A stretch of 64,000 bases of DNA, taken from Spirochaetota bacterium. Lineage in GTDB: Bacteria; Spirochaetota; UBA12135; COTS27; CBDBHE01. Location of the stretch: contig CBDBHE010000007.1 of NCBI GenBank assembly GCA_965205605.1, positions 192,001-256,000 of the forward strand, given 5' to 3'. The notes below the pieces were generated by a model. It was not told where the DNA came from, did not search any database, and was given only the letters and a program-made list of their open reading frames with translations. Shown in pieces: positions 6,141 to 18,623 of the stretch (positions within the stretch are counted from its first letter, which is position 1; the number at the start of each line of letters is the position of its first letter). The translations under genes were made by a program, and so were the position numbers.

Positions 6141-6666
6141 GACACGACCTTTTTTTCCTTTAAATTCTTTGCTCCCATTAAAAGCTATCTAATAAAGCTA
6201 TCTAATCGGCTTGCCTCCCTGTTTGTTCAAACATAAGCATCGTTGGTCTTAGATTAGATGGCTTGCAGTTCCTCTAAAATGACGTTGATTTACTTACAAA
6301 TAAGTTCATTTTCGTCCCAATTCTAACAGTAGTATACACTTTTTTTATATTTTTTTCTTAAATTAATAAATTTTTTAGTTTGGTTTTTAAGGGAATAATT
6401 TCTAAATTATTATTATTTCGTTTTATTCTTTGTATTTCTACTATAATGAAGCAAGACAAAGCGGTTTGAAATAAACATAATTTAAATAAATCGACATAAT
6501 AGCTAGCGTGTATAAGAATTAGAAAATGATTTATTTTAATAAGCTAACGGATGTAATGTTTTTAAATCAAAGTAAAGGATATAGAGAAAAAAATTAGTAA
6601 CAATGATTCTCTCGATTGGCTGTAAGATTTTTTTTTAATTTAGCTTAAATCCAACGTCTAACCTTA

Positions 6667-9456
6667 ATGTCAGAGATTATCTCCAACCCTATTTCCTTTC
6701 AAATTATTATTTGGTTATTTACGTGTATTCTATTAGTATTTTTAATGCAAGGGGGTTTTCTTTTATTAGAAACAGGATTAGTTCGCTCTAAAAACAGTAT
6801 TAACGTTGCTACCAAGAATACGGTCGACTTCGTCATTGCGATGTTGATTTTTTGGATAGTTGGCTATGGTCTCTTTGTAGGCGAAAGCTTTTATGGTTTC
6901 TTTGGTACGAGCTACTTTTTATTTAGAGAAGTAGATAATTATAAAATGGTTTTACATTTTATTTATCAAAGCACTTTTTGTGCCACAGCAGTCACCATTG
7001 TTTCGGGAGCTTTGGCGGAAAGAATCTATTCTAATGCTTATATTAAAATAATATTTTTACTTACAATCTTTGCATATCCGGTGATGGCTCACTGGGTTTG
7101 GAATGAGGCAGGATGGCTTTATCTATTGGGATTTAAAGATTATGCAGGCTCGACTGTGGTGCATAGTGTTGGAGGTTGGGCATCTTTAATTTTCTTAATG
7201 CAGATAGGTTATAGAAAAGGCCGATTCGACAACCGACAATCAAAATTACAAGCGTCTAACATTCCTCTGGCATGTTTTGGCTGTTTTATCTTGTGGGTAG
7301 GATGGTTTGGTTTTAACGGTGGTGGTGCTAGTGATAATTTTAAAAACATTCCTTTGATTTTATTCAATACACATTTATCGGGAATTTTAGGGGGGGCAGG
7401 TGCATTAGCTATCTACATGTTACGCTATCGACATGTCGACCCTATTTCACTCATTATAGGAACTTTGTCAGGTTTAGTAGCCGTTACGGCTAGTTGTAAT
7501 TTAATGGACCCCTACAATGCGGCTATGATTAGTTTTATTTCTGGTGCTCTGTCTATGTTGGGAGTTTGGTTTTTTGAAAAATGTAAAATAGATGATCCTG
7601 TATCGGCAATAGCGGTTCACTTAATTGGAGGGGTTTGGGGAACTCTTGCCTTAGCCTTGTTTGGAGATACCGCTTTATTTCCAAATGATAATTCTCGCCT
7701 GTTACAACTAGGAATACAAGCCATAGGTGTTGGAGCGTGTGGCTTATTTACCATTATTATTTCCTACATTGGCTACAAAATATTTAATTTCTTTACCCCC
7801 ATGCGTGTAACAGAACAAGAAGAGGACACAGGTTTAAATATTACAGAACATAAAGTTTCTACAGAAATCTACGACTTTTATCGCGTGTTAAACCAACAAG
7901 CCGAAGAACAAGAAAATCATGTCGTCTATACAGAAATAGGAGCGCTCGCTAAAAATTATAAAAATAGACTAGAAAGAGATCTCAACGAAAAAACACAATC
8001 ACTACGTAATTTTTTACAATTAACCCAACAAGGATTTTTGTCCTTTGGCAACGATTTTAGTATCGACATTGGATACTCTGAAGAATGTAAAAAGATTTTT
8101 GAAATAGGAGAATTAGAAGGCATGCATTTTGGAAAACTTCTTTATTCCAACAATCAACTGAAAAAGAAAGACTGGATAAATAGCTTAAACTTATTTTTTC
8201 ATAGCAATAAAAAATCTAAAATTATTTTTAAATTACTAGACGATACGCTTCTTTGGGAAAAGGATACTCCCCAACAAAAAGAATTGCAACTTCAATACAA
8301 AGAAATCAGCGAAAAAAAAGTCTTATGTATCATCACTGATCTTACTGCTAAGAAAAAACTCGAAAAACAAGTACAATCTTCTACCGACTATCAAAAAAAA
8401 TTATTGAAAGTGGTTTGTAATAATCGATTTTTTGGTCAATTTTTTGACAACGCAAAAGATTTATTGCTTTTTTATAAAAAAAGTATCCAAGATGAGCAAT
8501 TTTTAGCCCAACCGAAAAACCTTTCTAACCTTTATTTACGCACTCACGATTTAAAAGCTAATATGGGATTTTTTGGTTTTGATAATAGCCTGCTTCAACT
8601 CCATGACATGGAAAGCATTGTACTTAATGTGATAGAAAAAAAAAGCCCTCTCAATAAACGCGTGTTTAATCAACAAGCAAAAAATATTGAAGCAACTTTC
8701 AACAAAGAAATGAATTTCTTTAAAAACTCTCTAGGCGAAGAGTGGTTTGAAAATTTTGACTCCTTAATCATTTCTACAGAAAATGTAAAAGCGTTACAAA
8801 AGCTAGTAAAAGATGCTTACCCTAAAGATAAAAAACTTTTTCAAAAAATATCTTTTCTCAAAATTAAACCTTTTATAAAACTGGTTAGTTCCCTGAAACA
8901 ACTAGCTCTGGACGTAGCCTATCAATTAGATAAAAAAATCAAACCTCTTTCTGTGAAAATCTCAAAGGATTTAGTCGTGTCAAATGAAATCGCTAAACCA
9001 TTGTTGCGTATTTTCCCTCATATTATTCGAAACATGGTAGATCACGGGATCGAAAAACCTGAAAATCGAATAGAATTGAGAAAAGAAATGCACGGACAGC
9101 TTACTTTTTCCGCCGAAGAACAAACTCTAGTAAACAACAATGAAAGCAGATCTTATTACTTATTTACCTTTTCAGATGATGGGAGAGGCATTGATTTAGA
9201 AAAAATCAAAGAACTTTCTATTAAACGTGGATTACTAAAAGAAAATAACAATCCACCTGATCCCAAAGTGCTAATCTCTCATATTTTTAATGAACGATTT
9301 TCTACCAAAGAAAAAGAAACCACCATCTCCGGTAGAGGAGTTGGACTCTCTAGCTTAAAAAAAGAAGTCTATAATCTACAAGGGAAAATTAGCATCAAAA
9401 CTAAACTTGGTCATGGGACTACTCTTTTTATTAAAATACCTCAACTCATTTTTTAG
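6667..9456 (+). CDS. Ammonium transporter (Amt) fused to a PAS-like linker, an HPt domain and a CheA-type HATPase
   Basis: Amt motifs: MQGGFLLLETG, SGALAER, DYAGSTVVH, GWFGFNG, DDPVSAIAVH. HPt: THDLKAN. CheA-type boxes: HIIRNMVDHGIE, DDGRGID, FSTKE..ISGRGVGL. Confidence 0.9.
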   Translation: MSEIISNPISFQIIIWLFTCILLVFLMQGGFLLLETGLVRSKNSINVATKNTVDFVIAMLIFWIVGYGLFVGESFYGFFGTSYFLFREVDNYKMVLHFIYQSTFCATAVTIVSGALAERIYSNAYIKIIFLLTIFAYPVMAHWVWNEAGWLYLLGFKDYAGSTVVHSVGGWASLIFLMQIGYRKGRFDNRQSKLQASNIPLACFGCFILWVGWFGFNGGGASDNFKNIPLILFNTHLSGILGGAGALAIYMLRYRHVDPISLIIGTLSGLVAVTASCNLMDPYNAAMISFISGALSMLGVWFFEKCKIDDPVSAIAVHLIGGVWGTLALALFGDTALFPNDNSRLLQLGIQAIGVGACGLFTIIISYIGYKIFNFFTPMRVTEQEEDTGLNITEHKVSTEIYDFYRVLNQQAEEQENHVVYTEIGALAKNYKNRLERDLNEKTQSLRNFLQLTQQGFLSFGNDFSIDIGYSEECKKIFEIGELEGMHFGKLLYSNNQLKKKDWINSLNLFFHSNKKSKIIFKLLDDTLLWEKDTPQQKELQLQYKEISEKKVLCIITDLTAKKKLEKQVQSSTDYQKKLLKVVCNNRFFGQFFDNAKDLLLFYKKSIQDEQFLAQPKNLSNLYLRTHDLKANMGFFGFDNSLLQLHDMESIVLNVIEKKSPLNKRVFNQQAKNIEATFNKEMNFFKNSLGEEWFENFDSLIISTENVKALQKLVKDAYPKDKKLFQKISFLKIKPFIKLVSSLKQLALDVAYQLDKKIKPLSVKISKDLVVSNEIAKPLLRIFPHIIRNMVDHGIEKPENRIELRKEMHGQLTFSAEEQTLVNNNESRSYYLFTFSDDGRGIDLEKIKELSIKRGLLKENNNPPDPKVLISHIFNERFSTKEKETTISGRGVGLSSLKKEVYNLQGKISIKTKLGHGTTLFIKIPQLIF

Positions 9457-9465
9457 GAGAAAATA

Positions 9466-9951
9466 ATGATACAAGAAAACAACATCGATTACATTGCAAC
9501 ATTTATAAAAAGTAGTGCTTACATTTTTAAAGAAGAACTAAACATTCGAAAACTAAAGCGTAGAGATTTGTCTATTTCTCAAAAACCATATTTAAGCTTT
9601 CCTATTTTAGGCTTGATTGGGTTTTGGGGACAAAATTTAAAAGGACAAATTATTTATTCTGTGGCAATGCCTTTTGTGAAATGCATTACCGCCAAGATGC
9701 TACCGAATAAATTGCCCAATGATAGAAAAAAATTTGAGCATAGCTGTCTGGGAGAATTAATTAACATGATCTCAGGTCATGCAACGATTACTCTTGCCGG
9801 ACAAGATAGTATCATTCATATGACTCCCCCGGTGATTATCAATCAAGTGGAAAAATCCACAAAAATTGATTATTTAGATGCCAAAAACTTAGTGCTTTTA
9901 ATGGACTCATCGATTGGATCGATTGAAATAAATATTGGAATTAAAAACTAA
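9466..9951 (+). CDS. cheX: CheX chemotaxis phosphatase
   Basis: GLIGFWG..KGQIIY; catalytic ExxN in SCLGELINMISG; TPP motif. Confidence 0.85.
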   Translation: MIQENNIDYIATFIKSSAYIFKEELNIRKLKRRDLSISQKPYLSFPILGLIGFWGQNLKGQIIYSVAMPFVKCITAKMLPNKLPNDRKKFEHSCLGELINMISGHATITLAGQDSIIHMTPPVIINQVEKSTKIDYLDAKNLVLLMDSSIGSIEINIGIKN

Positions 9952-9953
9952 AG

Positions 9954-10310
9954 ATGAAAAAAATACTAGTTGTTGATGATTCGATGATGATGCGAGAACG
10001 CATTAAAGAGATTGTGACAAAATGTGGCGAGTTTACTATCACTGAAGCCGGTGACGGTGAGCAGGCAATTGCTCTTTATAAAGAAAATAAGCCCAATTTA
10101 GTGACCTTAGATATTTCCATGCCAGGAAAAAATGGCATAGAAGCTTTAACCGAAATCATGCAGATTGATACCAACGCTAATATAGTTATTATTAGTGCTG
10201 TAGCACAAAAGCAACTAATCATTCAGGCTATTTCTATTGGAGCAAAAGACTTTATTAACAAACCTTTTAACGAAGAAGAAGCGACAAACTTTATTAAAAG
10301 TCACCTATAA
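9954..10310 (+). CDS. cheY: CheY-like single-domain response regulator
   Basis: ILVVDDS, LDISMP (phosphoacceptor Asp), IISA and KPF; no output domain. Confidence 0.85.
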   Translation: MKKILVVDDSMMMRERIKEIVTKCGEFTITEAGDGEQAIALYKENKPNLVTLDISMPGKNGIEALTEIMQIDTNANIVIISAVAQKQLIIQAISIGAKDFINKPFNEEEATNFIKSHL

Positions 10311-10406: not shown

Positions 10407-10748
10407 TTAAATGACTATTTTATTTAGAATAAAAACTAGTAAAGTTATTCCTATACTAAAACCAATACTCATTATTGCTAGTATCCATTTTCCAGACAAA
10501 TCTATTTTTGTTTCTATCCTTATTATGTCTTCTCTTAAAACACTTTCTACTTTATTTATCTCTTCTCTTAAATCGCTTTCTACTTTATTTATTTCTTCTT
10601 TTAAGAACCCTATCTCTTCTTTTAAGAACCCTATGTCTTCTTTTGTAGCAAGACCACTTTTGCCATTAATGGCTTCAGCAAGTTTGATGGCTTTTTTATT
10701 ACTAAAGCCTTGCTCTTCTAATATCTCTACGATTTCTAAGGTATCCAT
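10407..10748 (-). CDS. DUF1640/CCDC90 (Bdr-like) coiled-coil protein, copy 2
   Basis: The first 42 aa differ from copy 1 at one position. The stalk has two 21-bp and two 33-bp repeats, and the TM anchor differs. Confidence 0.75.
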   Translation of the reverse strand: MDTLEIVEILEEQGFSNKKAIKLAEAINGKSGLATKEDIGFLKEEIGFLKEEINKVESDLREEINKVESVLREDIIRIETKIDLSGKWILAIMSIGFSIGITLLVFILNKIVI

Positions 10749-10760
10749 CTTTCTTCCTTT

Positions 10761-10804
10761 TTTTATCTATATAAAAGTATAGTATTTATATAGATAAAAG
10801 TAAA
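10761..10804 (-). promoter_or_regulatory. Promoter with 15-bp inverted-repeat operator (copy 2)
   Basis: The same arms as copy 1 with a 9-nt centre. The minus strand reads TTTACT-17-TATACT. Confidence 0.7.
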
Positions 10805-13294: not shown

Positions 13295-13689
13295 CTAAAT
13301 AAAAAAACTTAGAGGTGTGTTGTATACGCTTAGTTTTCCAAGAGAATTAGCTTCATCGTGATGAGGACAGACAAAAATTCTAATCTGTTTATCATTTACT
13401 TCTCTTTTAGGGATACCTTACCAGTGCCATTGTTTAAAAAATCCTTTACCGTGTAAAAGGCATTTTCTTTTAGTTGAAACATTTAATTTTCCCTTTTTAT
13501 TATTTTTATAAGGTGTTTATTTAACAAGCCTTTAAGTTCACGAGCGATTAATTGATAGGCCTTTTTGTCATTAAAAAACAAATTAATAGGTTTATTTTTA
13601 CGCTTTACATTGATTTCACCAATGAGAATTTCTTTTACATTTAATTTAATGTCTTGTGTTCCTGTACGATTATTGATTTGTTTTAACAA
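13295..13689 (-). pseudogene. Phage remnant: small ORF plus a primase-type Zn-finger fragment
   Basis: ORF 13483..13689 is followed by ATG 13482. After one frameshift it reads ...IRIFVCPHHDEANSLGKLSVYN, similar to the CHC2 motif CPFHDExxxS. Confidence 0.4.
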
Positions 13690-13698
13690 GTTTAGACA

Positions 13699-13802
13699 GT
13701 CATAGGCACTTAACAGAGTGCTTTATGATATAATAAAAAATACTTTCACTCAAACATGTTGTGATGGTCATAGGCACTTAACAGAATGCTTTATGATATA
13801 AT
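13699..13802 (+). CRISPR. Type II-C mini-array: two 36-bp repeats and one 32-bp spacer
   Basis: GTCATAGGCACTTAACAGA(G/A)TGCTTTATGATATAAT at 13699-13734 and 13767-13802. Spacer AAAAAATACTTTCACTCAAACATGTTGTGATG. Each repeat ends in an extended -10 (TGnTATAAT). It sits 100 bp from the end of cas2. Confidence 0.9.
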
Positions 13803-13803
13803 A

Positions 13804-13902: not shown

Positions 13903-14235
13903 TCAGAAAAAACACAGCTGCTTAGTTCCAAAAATCTCATTTTTACTAAAATCGCCTAAAAAAATTTTCATTTTTGAATACTGTTTATCGGTTATTTTTA
14001 ATGCTCGCACACTTCCCTTTCCTGGTAAAAATTTTTCTAAACGTTTCAAATGTTTTTCAGCCGATTCATTCCCTCGACATGGTCTTGCATAGATAGAAAA
14101 TTGTACCATGGTGTAACCATCTTTAATCAAATTTAAACGAAAACCACTTGCCCTTTTTCTTTCTAAATCCGTTCCCACAGGTAAATCAAACAAAACCATC
14201 ACCCACATAAATCGAATCTCCTCGTTAGCTGGCAT
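13903..14235 (-). CDS. cas2: CRISPR-associated Cas2
   Basis: MWVMVLFDLPV...FRLNLIKDGYTMVQFSIYAR...ITDKQY, the type II Cas2 pattern. Confidence 0.95.
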   Translation of the reverse strand: MPANEEIRFMWVMVLFDLPVGTDLERKRASGFRLNLIKDGYTMVQFSIYARPCRGNESAEKHLKRLEKFLPGKGSVRALKITDKQYSKMKIFLGDFSKNEIFGTKQLCFF

Positions 14236-14238
14236 CGC

Positions 14239-15117
14239 TTAAAGCATCTTCACACAAATACAAGTCGTTTCATTTCGAATTGTTCTGTAAAAATATTCGG
14301 CAATTTTTTCGCACGCATTAATTAAAATTAAAGTTTCACCATTTAGATCACACGAAACTTGCAATACTTCCACAAGTTTTTGTCGATTTTTACGACTGAG
14401 TTCATTTTCATCTAACTGCGATTGCATCCCATAAACAAAACAATCCACAAAGGGTCTAAAAGGTTCGAAAAGATCGTCCACTAAATTAAAAGGATTAAGT
14501 TTGTTTTTGTGATGCACTCCAAGAGGTAAATAATATCCCGCTGCTGCCAAACTTCGTGCGAGTAGCGAACGAACAAGCGAGTAAACGTAGTTTAATGCTG
14601 CATTTTTTACGGTGTCTTCTGAGCGTATAAAATCTTTTCCAAAAAGAGCTTTCCAGTATCGTTTAGCTCCGATCGCTTCTAAATTTCCTTGGTCACCACT
14701 GGTTACTTTTTTGCTGAGCTTCAAAAGAAAATCTGCATCGCTGAGGTCAAGGAGTGATAAGACACAAGATTGATTGTAAAGTTTTGTTTTAACAATCTCT
14801 CGCCAAAGTTGTTTTTTTTGGGGAACGGTTAAGGCATTTTGCGCTTCGTAACTTTGAAGAGGACGAGAGTACCCTAAATAAGGAAGATAAAGCCCAGAAG
14901 GTAGATGATCTTTTGTACAAACCAGCAGCGGGACTTTGTTTTGGGCAAGCTCGCTCAATAAAGGCACTGTAAGACTAATCTGAGGATGATCGACTACCAC
15001 ACAGGCAAGGTCTTCGACTGCAAAAAAAAAACGGGTTTCTTTTTGAAAAATGCTTAGCTGTTTATTGTTTAGTCGCAAAGAAGAAGGGTTGGTTAAATGT
15101 AAAACACGCCATGCCAC
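14239..15117 (-). CDS. cas1: Type II CRISPR-associated Cas1
   Basis: MAWR start; EAIGAKRYW; NAALNY; GVHHKNKLNPFNLVDDLFEPFRP. Confidence 0.95.
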   Translation of the reverse strand: MAWRVLHLTNPSSLRLNNKQLSIFQKETRFFFAVEDLACVVVDHPQISLTVPLLSELAQNKVPLLVCTKDHLPSGLYLPYLGYSRPLQSYEAQNALTVPQKKQLWREIVKTKLYNQSCVLSLLDLSDADFLLKLSKKVTSGDQGNLEAIGAKRYWKALFGKDFIRSEDTVKNAALNYVYSLVRSLLARSLAAAGYYLPLGVHHKNKLNPFNLVDDLFEPFRPFVDCFVYGMQSQLDENELSRKNRQKLVEVLQVSCDLNGETLILINACEKIAEYFYRTIRNETTCICVKML

Positions 15118-15137
15118 TTTTGACTTTTAATCCTAAG

Positions 15138-18100
15138 TTAAAGTTCTTGTCTACGGCTTAAAGGCTCTTGATGATGTTTTTTAATGGGATGCACTTCTCC
15201 CAAAGGATTAACCTCAAATTTTTTAAAAACTTTAAAATGTTGTATCCCAATACCCTCCATAATACCTTTATTGACTTTGGGTTCTTTTCTAATTTGATTA
15301 AGAGCGATCTCTTCAAAGATATTTTCTTTTTGATTGGCTTCATACGATTTATTCTCATCATAAGGCTTACGATGAAGATGATACCCATCATGTCCTTTAA
15401 CACTAATAGCATTAGTACTAATATTAAAATCATTGTAATACATTCGATATAAATAAAGCTGTTTTTTTCCTTGTTCTTTTGTATCACCCATACGAGTAAA
15501 CTCAATTAAATCACCTCGATACAAGCTAAAAAAAAATGTATACCCTGCATCATCTGTTAACTCGATTTTTCTTTTTATTTCTTTTCGTGGCAGCTTAAGC
15601 TTAGAGACATCACTCATGTAAAGAGGAGCTGCAAAGTATTCGTTTTTTGAACTTGTATAAACATCGATTCGAAGCATTGTAGCTGTGGCATAGCGACCCA
15701 GTATCTTTTCTTTTCCACTTTTTTGGAGGCGTTTATCCCGTACCTCAAAGCGTGGTTTTTTTTGTGGAAGAGGAATGCGTATCGCGTAAATAAGTGTTTG
15801 TTTTTTACCAATTTTCACAAAGAGTCTATTATCTTGGATTTCATTTTTATCAATCCCTGGAGCTTTATTTCCTGTTTCATCTTTTTTTTTGGATTTTTTT
15901 TTTATTTCACCAAAAGATTTTTGAAATGCTTTTTTATCCGTGAGATTTATCGGATCAAACCCTCTTTCTTCAAGTCGCTCGAAAATCGCCTTATAAATTA
16001 AATACTGAGGATGTGTTTGATTGTATTTTTTTGACTCTTTTGTAAAATTTTCCCAAAAAGGTTTTGTTAAGTTTTTTATGTCTACACGATGCCAAACAAT
16101 TTTATTTTTGTACGAGTAAAGGGTTTCTTCGTGTACCTGCCCTCTTCGTCGTCTTCTAACAAAACGAGAAACAAAAATTTTCCTAACCTGATTAACAAGA
16201 TCTTTAGCAAAGGCATCCCAAGGAAGTAAAAACTCTTTTTTCTGCTCAGGAGTCAGTTTATTTAACTCACTCGCTTGATAAAAACGAGTAATCTTCTGTA
16301 CCATCGAAGGATTAGTCAATGCGACAATTGTTGCATCAATGGCATGGTGTTTGTCGCTGCCTTCTCGATTTTTAGTGATGGTTTCTATCTCTTCTTTAGT
16401 CGCACTAAGGCCAGCTTTACCAGCATCAGCAGCTTTTTTGAGAGATCCAATCCATCGTTTTCTTAGAAATCCTGTTACCTGTCCATTTGTAGTAAAAACA
16501 CGTTGTTTTTTTTTACCATTAAGCAAAGGTTCTTCATTATAAAGACATTTAAGATAGTTCATTACAAATCGAGCAATGTAACGTGTATCATTGATATTAC
16601 GTTCAAGAAAGCCCTCATTATTGTAATTTTCTCTAAGAAGGCGTTTAACTTTTACTTCTTTTATTTTATTATTTTTTTGAAACCCAAGGATAAAATTGCT
16701 AAATTTTTCCCAACGTTCTTTATCTTGCCCAAAATATTCATAAGGAATTCTATTGCCTTTATTTTGGTTTTCAGAAGTATAAGAAAGCACTTTATTGTTT
16801 AAACTGTCATCTTGACTGCGACTTAAAGGCAAGATGTGATCAATTTGAAAATTCTCAATATTATTTACAAACTCTTGGCTTTCAATTCTCTTCATCGAAT
16901 AAATACAATGTTGATCTTGCTGTTCTTTCCAGAAACGATATTTTAAAAGCTCTTCTCCTCTAGGCTGTCGCTGAAAAAGACTTTTAAAATTTTTAACAGC
17001 GTCTGCTTGAATCTCTCGAAACTTTTTTTGTCCCTCTTCGATTTTTTTTCTCTCAATAGCTCCCTTGCCAATCTCTCGTCCAGTTTCAATTTTAATAAAA
17101 TCTGGTCTACCATGTTTTTTGATGATCGCATTAACAACTTTACGAACCTGTGTCACTGATCGAAACGCTACTGGATTCATTGAGATAGCTTCGGCTTTAG
17201 GATCATTTTGATCGACAACTGGTAAATTGCCTTTTTTATCCAATTCCCAATCTTTCAAAATACCACCAGAAGAATACCCTGCTTTACGACATGCCTTTGT
17301 ATACACTTCACCTGCTTCAAGATGTGGCAAAATCTTTTTCATTGCCTTAAAAGAAAGATTTAAAACCTTATCAAAATCAAGTAGATTGGTTAACTTAATT
17401 AAATCTTTATCTTTAATACCCCTTTTAGAAAGTTCTTTTTCTACACTTATAGGATTTTTATAATAAGTGGCAACCTCGGCAAGTGTGTCTAAAGTTTTAA
17501 TATCAGTTTTTAAAGATTCCCAAATGATAGAAGGAATTTCTTCAGTAATAACATCTTTTATTTGCCAATAAGCAGGCATTTTAGCAAAAATTTCTTTTTT
17601 TTCATTTTTTTTTTCTACCTCTTTAAAAAGTAAATTTTGATCTAATTTTAATAATTTTCGAACTTCTGAATACTTAATTTCTTTTTTTTCATTTAAAAGA
17701 CAATTTTTAATCTTTTTTTTATCTTCTTTTGAAAATGATTTTTCTTCTTCAGGCGAATAGGCACTAAAACGAACATTATTCAACCTTTGATACAACGTTA
17801 TCAGTTCGGCTGTTGGAGAACTTTTAGGAGCTCTTTTTTCTTTTGGCTCATGCACACAATATCCAACCATGTTATAAATATCTTTCATGGGTGTTTGATG
17901 AAAAAAAATATCATTTACGTATTCTTTTTCAAAGGCATCACTTAAGATTTCTTTATTGCCAAAATCTCTTTGTTTGCTAAAAATGACTTCCAGTTCTTCT
18001 TTTAGAAGCTTTCGAAAAGGTGTTCGAGTATAGTGTCCTTTTTTATTGCGTTTAGCAAAACGATACGCCTCATCCTTATCAAAAAGATCGCCGAGTGTTT

Positions 18101-18623
18101 GATAATTTTTAATTTCGATGGATGCCTCTATTTTTTCACCCGCTTTTTTTATCTCACCTATTTCTTCCTTTTTTTCTTTAGGCTCATGTTTGCGATTTGA
18201 TAAAAATCCACGATGCTTAACAAAATAATAAAAAAGGACTATCAATTCTTTTTTACTAAGTTTTTCACTTAATGCTTTTACTCGGAGTTTCCATGGGTTG
18301 TCTTTTTTTTCGTCGTAAGATTCACGAAGTTCATCAAATAAAAAAGACTCTTTATCATTTAGGAAGCCATGTTTGATTAAAAGTTTTTTTGTTTTTTCAA
18401 GGCGTTGTCTTCGTCTCTTAAGTCGTCTACGAGCAAGACGTTTTTCTCGACGATTTTTATTGAGTGATTCTTTAGTTTTAGAGTCTTCGAGAGCTGGAAA
18501 ATGACGAACTCCCATATCAATGATGCTTTTATTATCTTGCTCATTTTTACCTTGCTCATTTATAAGACTCCAGCCGATAGAAGTAATCCCTAAATCCAAT
18601 CCTAAAATTTTTTTCGAATTCAT
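15138..18623 (-). CDS. cas9: Type II-C Cas9, 1161 aa, with catalytic residues intact
   Basis: RuvC-I LGLDLGITSIGW; Arg-rich bridge helix; RuvC-II IKIETGRE; HNH IDHILPLS..DDSLNNKVL..NQNKGN; RuvC-III KHHAIDA. No csn2 or cas4 in the locus. Confidence 0.97.
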   Translation of the reverse strand: MNSKKILGLDLGITSIGWSLINEQGKNEQDNKSIIDMGVRHFPALEDSKTKESLNKNRREKRLARRRLKRRRQRLEKTKKLLIKHGFLNDKESFLFDELRESYDEKKDNPWKLRVKALSEKLSKKELIVLFYYFVKHRGFLSNRKHEPKEKKEEIGEIKKAGEKIEASIEIKNYQTLGDLFDKDEAYRFAKRNKKGHYTRTPFRKLLKEELEVIFSKQRDFGNKEILSDAFEKEYVNDIFFHQTPMKDIYNMVGYCVHEPKEKRAPKSSPTAELITLYQRLNNVRFSAYSPEEEKSFSKEDKKKIKNCLLNEKKEIKYSEVRKLLKLDQNLLFKEVEKKNEKKEIFAKMPAYWQIKDVITEEIPSIIWESLKTDIKTLDTLAEVATYYKNPISVEKELSKRGIKDKDLIKLTNLLDFDKVLNLSFKAMKKILPHLEAGEVYTKACRKAGYSSGGILKDWELDKKGNLPVVDQNDPKAEAISMNPVAFRSVTQVRKVVNAIIKKHGRPDFIKIETGREIGKGAIERKKIEEGQKKFREIQADAVKNFKSLFQRQPRGEELLKYRFWKEQQDQHCIYSMKRIESQEFVNNIENFQIDHILPLSRSQDDSLNNKVLSYTSENQNKGNRIPYEYFGQDKERWEKFSNFILGFQKNNKIKEVKVKRLLRENYNNEGFLERNINDTRYIARFVMNYLKCLYNEEPLLNGKKKQRVFTTNGQVTGFLRKRWIGSLKKAADAGKAGLSATKEEIETITKNREGSDKHHAIDATIVALTNPSMVQKITRFYQASELNKLTPEQKKEFLLPWDAFAKDLVNQVRKIFVSRFVRRRRRGQVHEETLYSYKNKIVWHRVDIKNLTKPFWENFTKESKKYNQTHPQYLIYKAIFERLEERGFDPINLTDKKAFQKSFGEIKKKSKKKDETGNKAPGIDKNEIQDNRLFVKIGKKQTLIYAIRIPLPQKKPRFEVRDKRLQKSGKEKILGRYATATMLRIDVYTSSKNEYFAAPLYMSDVSKLKLPRKEIKRKIELTDDAGYTFFFSLYRGDLIEFTRMGDTKEQGKKQLYLYRMYYNDFNISTNAISVKGHDGYHLHRKPYDENKSYEANQKENIFEEIALNQIRKEPKVNKGIMEGIGIQHFKVFKKFEVNPLGEVHPIKKHHQEPLSRRQEL

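Follow-up and report, generated by a model that had tools for sequence, protein, structure and literature searches.

The transducer of the ammonium sensor Ks-Amt5 is a classical HisKA kinase. Two sensor-Amt transducers have been characterised, this histidine kinase and the diguanylate cyclase of Sd-Amt1. In PMC5764959 and PMC11152129 Ks-Amt5 is termed just a fused histidine kinase, and the words 'CheA', 'Hpt' and 'chemotaxis' are absent from the searched passages of both papers. Here we describe an operon from a Spirochaetota bacterium (assembly GCA_965205605.1, contig CBDBHE010000007.1), in which a single protein of 929 amino acids (aa), P0001, joins an Amt domain to a CheA-type kinase core and is encoded directly ahead of cheX (P0002) and cheY (P0003). 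The window referred to throughout is the stretch of 64,000 nucleotides (nt) from positions 192,001 to 256,000 of that contig, which contains the operon.

The kinase core resembles a second group of known systems. Class III histidine kinases (HKIII; Adebali et al. 2017, J Bacteriol 199:e00218-17), for instance D. radiodurans DR_1227 and DR_0577, reportedly carry their own sensor, an Hpt in place of the dimerisation and histidine phosphotransfer (DHp) domain and a CheA-like catalytic domain, without CheW or a dimerisation domain detectable by Pfam; their operons are said to include CheX and a single-domain response regulator, and their hosts to carry pilT, a marker of type IV pili. By architecture and partners, the kinase–CheX–CheY cassette described here is probably HKIII-like. 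CheW was present in 100% of the CheA proteins compiled by Berry et al. 2023 (PMC10782961), and by that definition the 929-aa kinase is not a CheA, since it has no CheW domain.

Architecture of the Amt-kinase protein and its partners

The N-terminal half of P0001 scores above the family cut-offs for Amt/Mep/Rh proteins (PF00909, 349 bits against 23.2) and for amt (TIGR00836, 363.4 bits against 343.3). The twin histidines are H166 (TVVHS) and H318 (AVHLIGG). Together with F104, F216, W145 and D158 they align with the twin His, Phe gate and Trp/Asp recruitment site of E. coli AmtB. Among solved structures, 8qj3/8qpf (E 7e-95) and 6eu6 (E 2e-79) match best, and the transporters A. fulgidus Amt-1 and E. 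coli AmtB rank below them. The 8qj3/8qpf pair is presumably Sd-Amt1, and 6eu6 presumably Ks-Amt5; the PDB listing says just 'Ammonium transporter'. For the N1/N2 ammonium-binding pocket of receptors, Pflüger et al. 2024 proposed the signature QX6EX15NX2D[F/T]X54-60TX2[S/T], as given in a passage of PMC11152129, and P0001 matches it at every position (Table 1). Another Amt, encoded at 443 kb on contig C7 of the same genome, fails to fit this expression and has a P-II (GlnK-type) gene just downstream, so the genome appears to hold an ordinary uptake pair plus a sensor-type paralogue. To judge from its sequence, with the N1/N2 signature complete, the Amt half resembles an ammonium receptor.

In the other half, Pfam HATPase_c covers residues 785-926 and NCBIfam CheA models match residues 728-925. 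Pfam Hpt found no match in P0001 itself, and for this reason a profile (A2) of residues 400-929 with 87 homologues, 88 sequences in all, was searched against the PDB. It matched CheA P1 (T. maritima 1tqg, E 7e-10; E. coli CheA residues 10-105) and CheA P3P4 (T. maritima 4xiv, E 5.7e-73), the latter alignment taking in P3, as it starts at chain residue 14. K630 and E649 are invariant in A2, and H627, the first residue of the HDLKAN motif, is at least 90% conserved; in E. coli CheA P1 they line up with an H-x-x-K and a Glu 22 positions after the His, so that the +3/+22 spacing is shared. An AlphaFold2 model of residues 400-929 (mean predicted local distance difference test score 88.8) places a coiled coil, a PAS-like fold of two strands, four helices and three strands, and a helical bundle ahead of a reduced P3-like hairpin at 704-732. 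This hairpin, absent from the initial annotation, has helices at 704-717 and 722-732 (14 and 11 residues).

The best Foldseek match is again CheA P3P4 (4xiv), with P4 chains reaching a template modelling score of up to 0.91, and the CheA P4 chains 1i5d, 1i58 and 6mi6 match P4 at E about 1e-21 in the PDB. The nucleotide-binding motifs are of the CheA type, with an N box (HIIRNMVDHGIE) at 785, G1 (DDGRGID) at 837 and G2 (SGRGVGL) at 888. PF02895 (H-kinase_dim) matches neither the 929-aa protein nor its aligned Amt-fused relatives. The chain terminates with P4, there being no PF01584 match for a CheW/P5 domain, and it has no P2 domain.

Across the 88 members, whatever their N-terminal sensor, the PAS-like domain has the invariant residues G456 and S471 and shows conservation of at least 90% at Q455, F457 and Cys474. 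Cys474 (window 8086-8088) lies in a GYSxEC motif. The PAS-like domain of the kinase family may bind a cofactor or receive a second input.

The cheX product matches Pfam CheX (PF13690, 36.1 bits against a cut-off of 27) and NCBIfam CheX_Thtogales. Its active site reads S93-x3-E97-x2-N100, with E97 and N100 aligned to T. maritima CheX (1squ) and P121/P122 at a spacing identical to that protein. The cheY product matches Pfam Response_reg (E 4e-28) and has D8, D9, D53, S81, F100 and K103, that is, the acidic pocket, phospho-Asp, Ser, aromatic switch and Lys. Its best PDB match is T. maritima CheY (E 1.5e-31, 112 bits), and B. burgdorferi CheY3 follows at E 7e-21. Judged by these motifs, the catalytic sites of kinase, CheX and CheY are all intact.

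The initial annotation, made without database searches, had read the operon as a 929-aa open reading frame (ORF) with cheX 9 nt and cheY 2 nt further on, its product running from a full Amt channel with both twin His through a coiled-coil/PAS-like linker to an HPt (HDLKAN) and a CheA-type ATPase, with no CheW domain. The ORF coordinates give exactly these gaps. Pfam and H166/H318 agree with the channel, while the A2 profile, AlphaFold2 and Foldseek uphold the remainder; the genome's three CheW matches all lie on another contig, C4.

Recurrence of the fusion and of the cassette

Two checks had been proposed for the fusion, a search for the Amt+HPt+HATPase_CheA architecture and an examination of reads at the Amt-kinase junction. 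When 1.84 billion representatives were searched exhaustively with HMMER, full-length relatives of about 905-950 aa emerged, and the Amt-kinase fusion is common to about 20 protein clusters, mostly from spirochaetes. An alignment (A3) of 22 Amt-fused proteins, P0001 included, shows Ammonium_transp and HATPase_c in 22/22, Pfam Hpt in 14/22 and HisKA in 1/22, with H627, K630 and E649 each at least 90% conserved. Named carriers are Rarispira pelagica and Gracilinema caldarium, where the proteins are annotated merely as "ammonium transporter" or "histidine kinase", and five spirochaete genomes in GTDB have the fusion (L095-L099). Residues 380-408, at the Amt C-terminus and junction, are among the best-conserved stretches across the Amt-fused relatives. 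A Logan contig from one sample spans the junction (7730-8735) with 0 differences; that sample may be the source of the window, so it is the homologues, with their shared junction motif, that provide independent evidence. On the strength of these relatives, we regard the Amt-kinase fusion as genuine and recurrent.

Two loci that looked like fusions from their match spans, L053 and L055, proved to be tandem paralogues. A classical Amt-PAS-HisKA-HATPase-REC protein (959 aa) that matches the N1/N2 signature is encoded at L103:5980-8859, in a metagenome-assembled genome titled 'Actinomycetes bacterium', and a REC-REC-PAS-HisKA hybrid kinase adjoins this gene.

The kinase core is far more widespread than its Amt-fused form. 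Residues 400-929 alone retrieved at least 4384 proteins at E <=0.001 among 8000 scored, in which the core follows HAMP, Cache, 7TMR-DISM, NMT1, PAS and other sensors and is in some cases fused to CheX. The ESM Atlas has a matching variety of sensors across several phyla.

Conservation of the cheX and cheY neighbours, a further check raised at the outset, was examined in L001-L028 and L077, which are 29 loci of the spirochaete type. In 25 of the 29 the kinase is followed at once by an ORF of about 155-160 aa that resembles CheX. In 24 of those 25 a single receiver ORF (about 118 aa) comes next, some 400-640 nt past the kinase stop, which is the order in the window. The four incomplete loci stop at a contig edge: L004, L015 and L027 at 148, 53 and 0 nt past the kinase, and L028 at 84 nt past cheX. 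Aligned along its whole length, the window CheX shares 34-41% identity with the cassette CheX of 26 spirochaete loci, and the window CheY is 44-55% identical to the cassette CheYs. The Amt-fused versions keep the pair, with the order cheY-cheX-kinase followed by a PAS-cyclase gene in L095 and L097 (by Pfam). In L096, L098 and L099, ORFs match cheY-cheX-kinase in size and position, and BLAST backs the CheY-like ORF. Kinase, CheX and CheY of the window are, as their alignments indicate, each orthologous to the parts of a conserved spirochaete cassette, with Amt filling the sensor slot.

The hidden Markov model for CheX was built from short ORFs and detects the spirochaete CheX subtype only, so cassette counts in other phyla are a minimum. 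In Bacillota CheX is frequently fused to the kinase, with a REC gene next. Three Bacteriovoracales/Halobacteriovoraceae genomes (L053, L055 and others) have 6-7 CheW-less HPt/CheA-type kinase loci each, some in tandem; these paralogues are mostly orphans, with no neighbouring cheX or cheY. The PAS-adenylate/guanylate cyclase genes of the Amt-fused loci lie at L095:8715-9809, overlapping the kinase, and L097:8740-10176.

A FastTree phylogeny of the C-terminal module (85 rows, one canonical CheA as outgroup, P0148 omitted for its short match, SH-like support only) places P0001 in a 12-row clade (support 100) of six Amt-fused and six HAMP- or other-sensor kinases. This clade is sister (support 99) to the spirochaete cassettes lacking Amt, and the remaining Amt-fused groups fall in other parts of the tree. 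At least three to four changes of the Amt label are required, from which we conclude that sensors have been swapped on a kinase chassis. P0009-P0013 and P0015, with HAMP or no recognised sensor, are nested within the Amt-fused clade. Some of these nested kinases share contigs with Amt-fused paralogues, as do P0006 and P0009 on one contig of 861,530 nt, and this indicates that sensors were exchanged recently on one kinase core.

Table 1. Features of the operon, in window coordinates.
Feature	Position	Strand	Evidence
Amt-PAS-HPt-P3like-P4 sensor kinase gene (929 aa, P0001)	6667..9456	+	ORF, translation, Pfam/NCBIfam, homologues
Amt channel/receptor domain, residues 16-397	6712..7857	+	Pfam Ammonium_transp, E 3.9e-104
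N1/N2 ammonium-receptor signature Q28-x6-E35-x15-N51-x2-D54-F55-x54-T110-x2-S113	6748..7005	+	regular expression match, residues 28-113
Conserved Amt C-terminal/junction segment, residues 380-408, RVTEQEEDTGLNITEHKVSTEIYDFYRVL	7804..7890	+	invariant column runs, Amt-fused relatives
Predicted coiled-coil signalling helix, residues 423-453	7933..8025	+	AlphaFold2 helix 24-54
PAS-like domain, residues 455-558	8029..8340	+	AlphaFold2 secondary structure, A2 conserved columns
HPt (CheA P1-like) helical bundle, residues 586-695; predicted phospho-acceptor His627, with K630 and E649	8422..8751	+	A2 profile, conservation, AlphaFold2
Short P3-like hairpin and P3-P4 junction, residues 704-735	8776..8871	+	4xiv alignment, AlphaFold2 helices 305-318 and 323-333
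CheA-type P4 ATP-binding domain	8875..9444	+	PDB CheA P4, NCBIfam CheA, Foldseek, motifs
cheX (161 aa, P0002)	9466..9951	+	Pfam CheX, NCBIfam CheX_Thtogales, PDB alignments, cassette CheX identity
cheY (118 aa, P0003)	9954..10310	+	Pfam REC, PDB matches, cassette CheY identity

The operon's neighbours are unrelated to it: the window annotation lists a heparinase-like gene, hypotheticals and CRISPR-Cas9 (Cas9-Cas1-Cas2). A horizontally acquired island had been considered; the composition is unremarkable. The sole nearby sigma-28-like site is at 6203-6229 on the minus strand, and a scan for sigma-70 promoters and terminators returned matches at chance level (20 sites against 19.6 expected).

Two further features of the window are recorded here. 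Three tandem 33-nt repeats (10511-10609, 70-100% identity) fall inside two small overlapping ORFs, 10407-10748 on the minus strand, which has a weak coiled-coil (CCDC90-like) match, and 10411-10782 on the plus strand. The type II CRISPR-Cas locus (13903-18623 on the minus strand, and 13685-13803) encodes Cas9 (1161 aa, HNH and RuvC_III), Cas1 and Cas2, and two 51-nt direct repeats spaced by 68 nt just past cas2 possibly mark a minimal array or a tracrRNA region.

Genome context, proposed relay and its alternatives

The assembly comprises 1.69 Mb in 8 contigs and is 91% complete. It encodes FliM, with the N-terminal sequence LSQDEIDKLL, and three matches to FlaA (PF04620), a family with matches in 0/14 control genomes. 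These FlaA matches, together with the nearest homologues, identify the genome as that of a spirochaete. No PilT/PilB-type ATPase (PF00437) was matched in this 91%-complete genome; the control search matched 13/14 reference genomes. One canonical che cluster lies at C4:25263-33574 (L175). Its makeup is unusual. Besides a cyclase and CheY it encodes CheA in two pieces, an Hpt protein of 170 aa and a core of 648 aa that has two CheW domains, along with CheW, CheB (208 aa, without a receiver domain), CheR and the genome's only methyl-accepting chemotaxis protein (MCP); it has no CheX of its own. The class III cyclase gene lies 4 nt upstream of cheY in this cluster, and this arrangement, taken with the cyclases at the L095 and L097 kinases, suggests that spirochaetes repeatedly associate che-like modules with cyclases. 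The absence of MCP, CheW, CheR, CheB and GlnK genes near the operon, remarked on initially, holds: genome family searches place all of them outside the window. The genome has seven receiver domains, three of them in single-domain proteins, of which the third (C7:537k) is Spo0F/DivK-like.

We propose, as moderately probable overall, that the operon encodes a self-contained, receptor-independent phosphorelay that senses ammonium and whose most probable output is FliM at the flagellar switch. The relay from ammonium through CheY-P to CheX is the firmer part and we consider it likely; the flagellar switch as its output is more tentative, falling somewhat short of an even chance. The Amt domain would act as an ammonium receptor of the Ks-Amt5/Sd-Amt1 type, with NH4+ passing the twin-His pair and filling the N1/N2 pocket. 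Movement would be relayed through the Amt C-terminal segment, the coiled coil and the PAS-like domain to the CheA-type core, and the changed geometry of PAS-like domain, HPt and P4 would let P4 phosphorylate His627 of the P1-like HPt. From His627 the phosphoryl group would pass to Asp53 of the adjacent CheY, and the adjacent CheX would hydrolyse CheY-P through E97/N100, so that the signal would follow the current ammonium level. No chemoreceptor array would be involved, as the kinase has no P5/CheW domain. A passage of PMC11152129 reports that ammonium enhanced kinase phosphorylation in Ks-Amt5, and by analogy ammonium should raise CheY-P here.

CheY-P would then bind the flagellar switch protein FliM and make motility dependent on ammonium. 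The flagellar switch is favoured because no other protein of the genome matches T. maritima CheY as well as P0003 does and no pilT-type ATPase was found; the CheY of the C4 che cluster, to which P0003 is 31% identical, scores 66 bits against T. maritima CheY, compared with 112 bits for P0003. A predicted complex of FliM(1-60) with P0003 scored 0.01, which counts neither way. Without methylation-type adaptation, the behaviour would be kinesis rather than classical adapting taxis.

The receptor-independent three-gene circuit put forward in the initial annotation gains partial support from the conservation of the cassette, the receptor signature and the intact motifs, which are all shown by the sequences; the ammonium dependence and its sign, the phosphotransfer partners and the output are inferred.

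Several observations weigh against this proposal. Most Amt-fused relatives (P0005, P0006, P0008, L095, L097, L098) miss the strict N1/N2 expression by one or two positions, which means that the signature varies within the family, and Gly220 occupies the position equivalent to S219 of AmtB. The HPt of P0001 escapes its Pfam model. None of the 8 genomes of the same order that were searched has a full-length match. No flagellar, nitrogen or motility gene adjoins the operon in the window annotation, and the interval 6141-6666 upstream of the kinase has neither a sigma-54 match nor a plus-strand sigma-28 match. The PAS-cyclase gene after the kinase in Amt-fused spirochaete loci hints at a non-motor output. 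Amt proteins are trimeric and CheA-type kinases dimeric, and with so short a P3-like region the oligomeric fit is puzzling. One may speculate that an HPt core with a reduced P3 suits a trimeric Amt better than a necessarily dimeric DHp kinase would. A bolder version of the proposal, which we hold to be doubtful, is a chemoreceptor-free route to the spirochaete motor, in which trimeric Amt drives the HPt/P4 kinase without a CheA-style dimer or CheW array and P0003 serves as the principal motor CheY. This would make ammonium a dominant steering cue in a single-MCP genome of 1.7 Mb, read without methylation-based adaptation.

The alternative to be taken most seriously, though unlikely, keeps the input and the relay as proposed and has CheY-P act on some other protein, such as a class III nucleotide cyclase or a different second-messenger enzyme, and thereby set physiology rather than swimming. 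The cyclase genes directly after the L095 and L097 kinases, and the one beside cheY in the C4 cluster of the same genome, speak for it, but no cyclase stands beside the window's own operon. HKIII has reportedly been tied by Adebali et al. 2017 to a non-flagellar output, type IV pili. A citing passage in PMC6501615 makes the same link, and the lack of adjoining motility genes fits a non-motor output. Against such an output are the genome's want of a PilT-type ATPase match, the 112-bit score of P0003 with a CheY that binds the motor, and the dedicated fast phosphatase, which is typical of signalling on behavioural time scales.

It is improbable that the Amt half is chiefly a working transporter, with the kinase reading a cytoplasmic redox or nitrogen cue through the PAS-like domain, or transport flux as a transceptor. 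All of W145, D158, F104, F216, H166 and H318 are kept, the PAS-like domain has a cysteine conserved in at least 90% of members whichever sensor precedes it, and some proteins with the N1/N2 signature do transport (in a passage of PMC11152129). However, a second, Amt-GlnK pair is present for uptake elsewhere in the genome, and P0001 combines the full signature with 8qj3/8qpf and 6eu6 as its closest solved relatives. Sd-Amt1 and Ks-Amt5 are reported, in the same source, mainly to bind rather than transport.

A service role in the canonical C4 system, with this CheY and CheX as its motor CheY and phosphatase or as a phosphate sink and the Amt-kinase as one of two inputs or a source of cross-talk, is quite improbable. 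It would account for the C4 cluster having no CheX, and for P0003 being closer than the C4 CheY to the motor CheYs of T. maritima and B. burgdorferi, but kinase, cheX and cheY keep their order and orthology as one unit in spirochaete loci and the gaps between the genes are 9 and 2 nt. An origin of the fusion in chimeric assembly or gene decay can be dismissed almost entirely: we found nothing in its favour, and it is already contradicted by a frame open over 929 codons, by independent assemblies that share the architecture and junction motif, by the Logan contig bridging the junction and by the retention of all catalytic motifs.

Relation to known systems

We found no description of an Amt-HPt-CheA-type protein in the literature searched, which included one Amt review, though the supplementary tables of PMC11152129 and PMC10782961 might list one. 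The initial annotation knew of no characterised example. That stands for the Amt input, which appears undescribed; it does not for the rest, as CheW-less, sensor-fused HPt/CheA-type kinases with CheX and a regulator form a large family.

If the proposed relay is correct, it would be a third type of sensor-Amt transducer, one that plugs ammonium into chemotaxis-style CheY/CheX signalling, in a field that has recently opened and whose authors anticipate further Amt-based systems. It would also be the first of the CheW-less CheA-like kinases, a class that has received little study, with an obvious, chemically defined ligand, and such a ligand would make the whole class testable in vitro. The system bears on how a CheA-type core can be switched without receptors, CheW or a full P3, and the problem of trimer versus dimer could be addressed in it directly. 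Gracilinema caldarium and Rarispira pelagica are named species with orthologues.

With Ks-Amt5 (PMC5764959) and Sd-Amt1 (an Amt-HAMP-GGDEF protein, PMC11152129) the protein shares an Amt domain of eleven transmembrane helices, the twin His, the N1/N2 signature and C-terminal helices leading to a cytoplasmic transducer. In contrast to both, it has as transducer a CheA-type HPt-P4 kinase served by a dedicated CheX and CheY; that of Sd-Amt1 is a diguanylate cyclase.

Canonical CheA (P1-P2-P3-P4-P5) has in common with the kinase the H/K/E constellation of P1, the P3-P4 junction and CheA-type N, G1 and G2 boxes. The kinase differs in lacking P2 and P5/CheW, in its reduced P3 and in having a transmembrane sensor on the same chain. 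Its partners resemble B. burgdorferi CheX-CheY3 (PDB 3hzh) and T. maritima CheX/CheY in the CheX fold, the ExxN site and a CheY of the Thermotoga/Borrelia type; unlike those, they are encoded with a sensor kinase and not in a CheA-CheW-MCP operon.

The system also resembles HKIII, for which the reported features are a sensor, Hpt and CheA-like kinase on one chain, no CheW, and CheX with a single-domain regulator. The present system departs from that class in its Amt membrane input, its flagellated spirochaete host, the lack of a PF00437 match and the absence of a soluble stub chemoreceptor nearby; further, its short P3-like hairpin aligns to CheA P3. Overall, the operon appears to be an Amt receptor joined to an HKIII-type relay, in which only the Amt input seems to be new.

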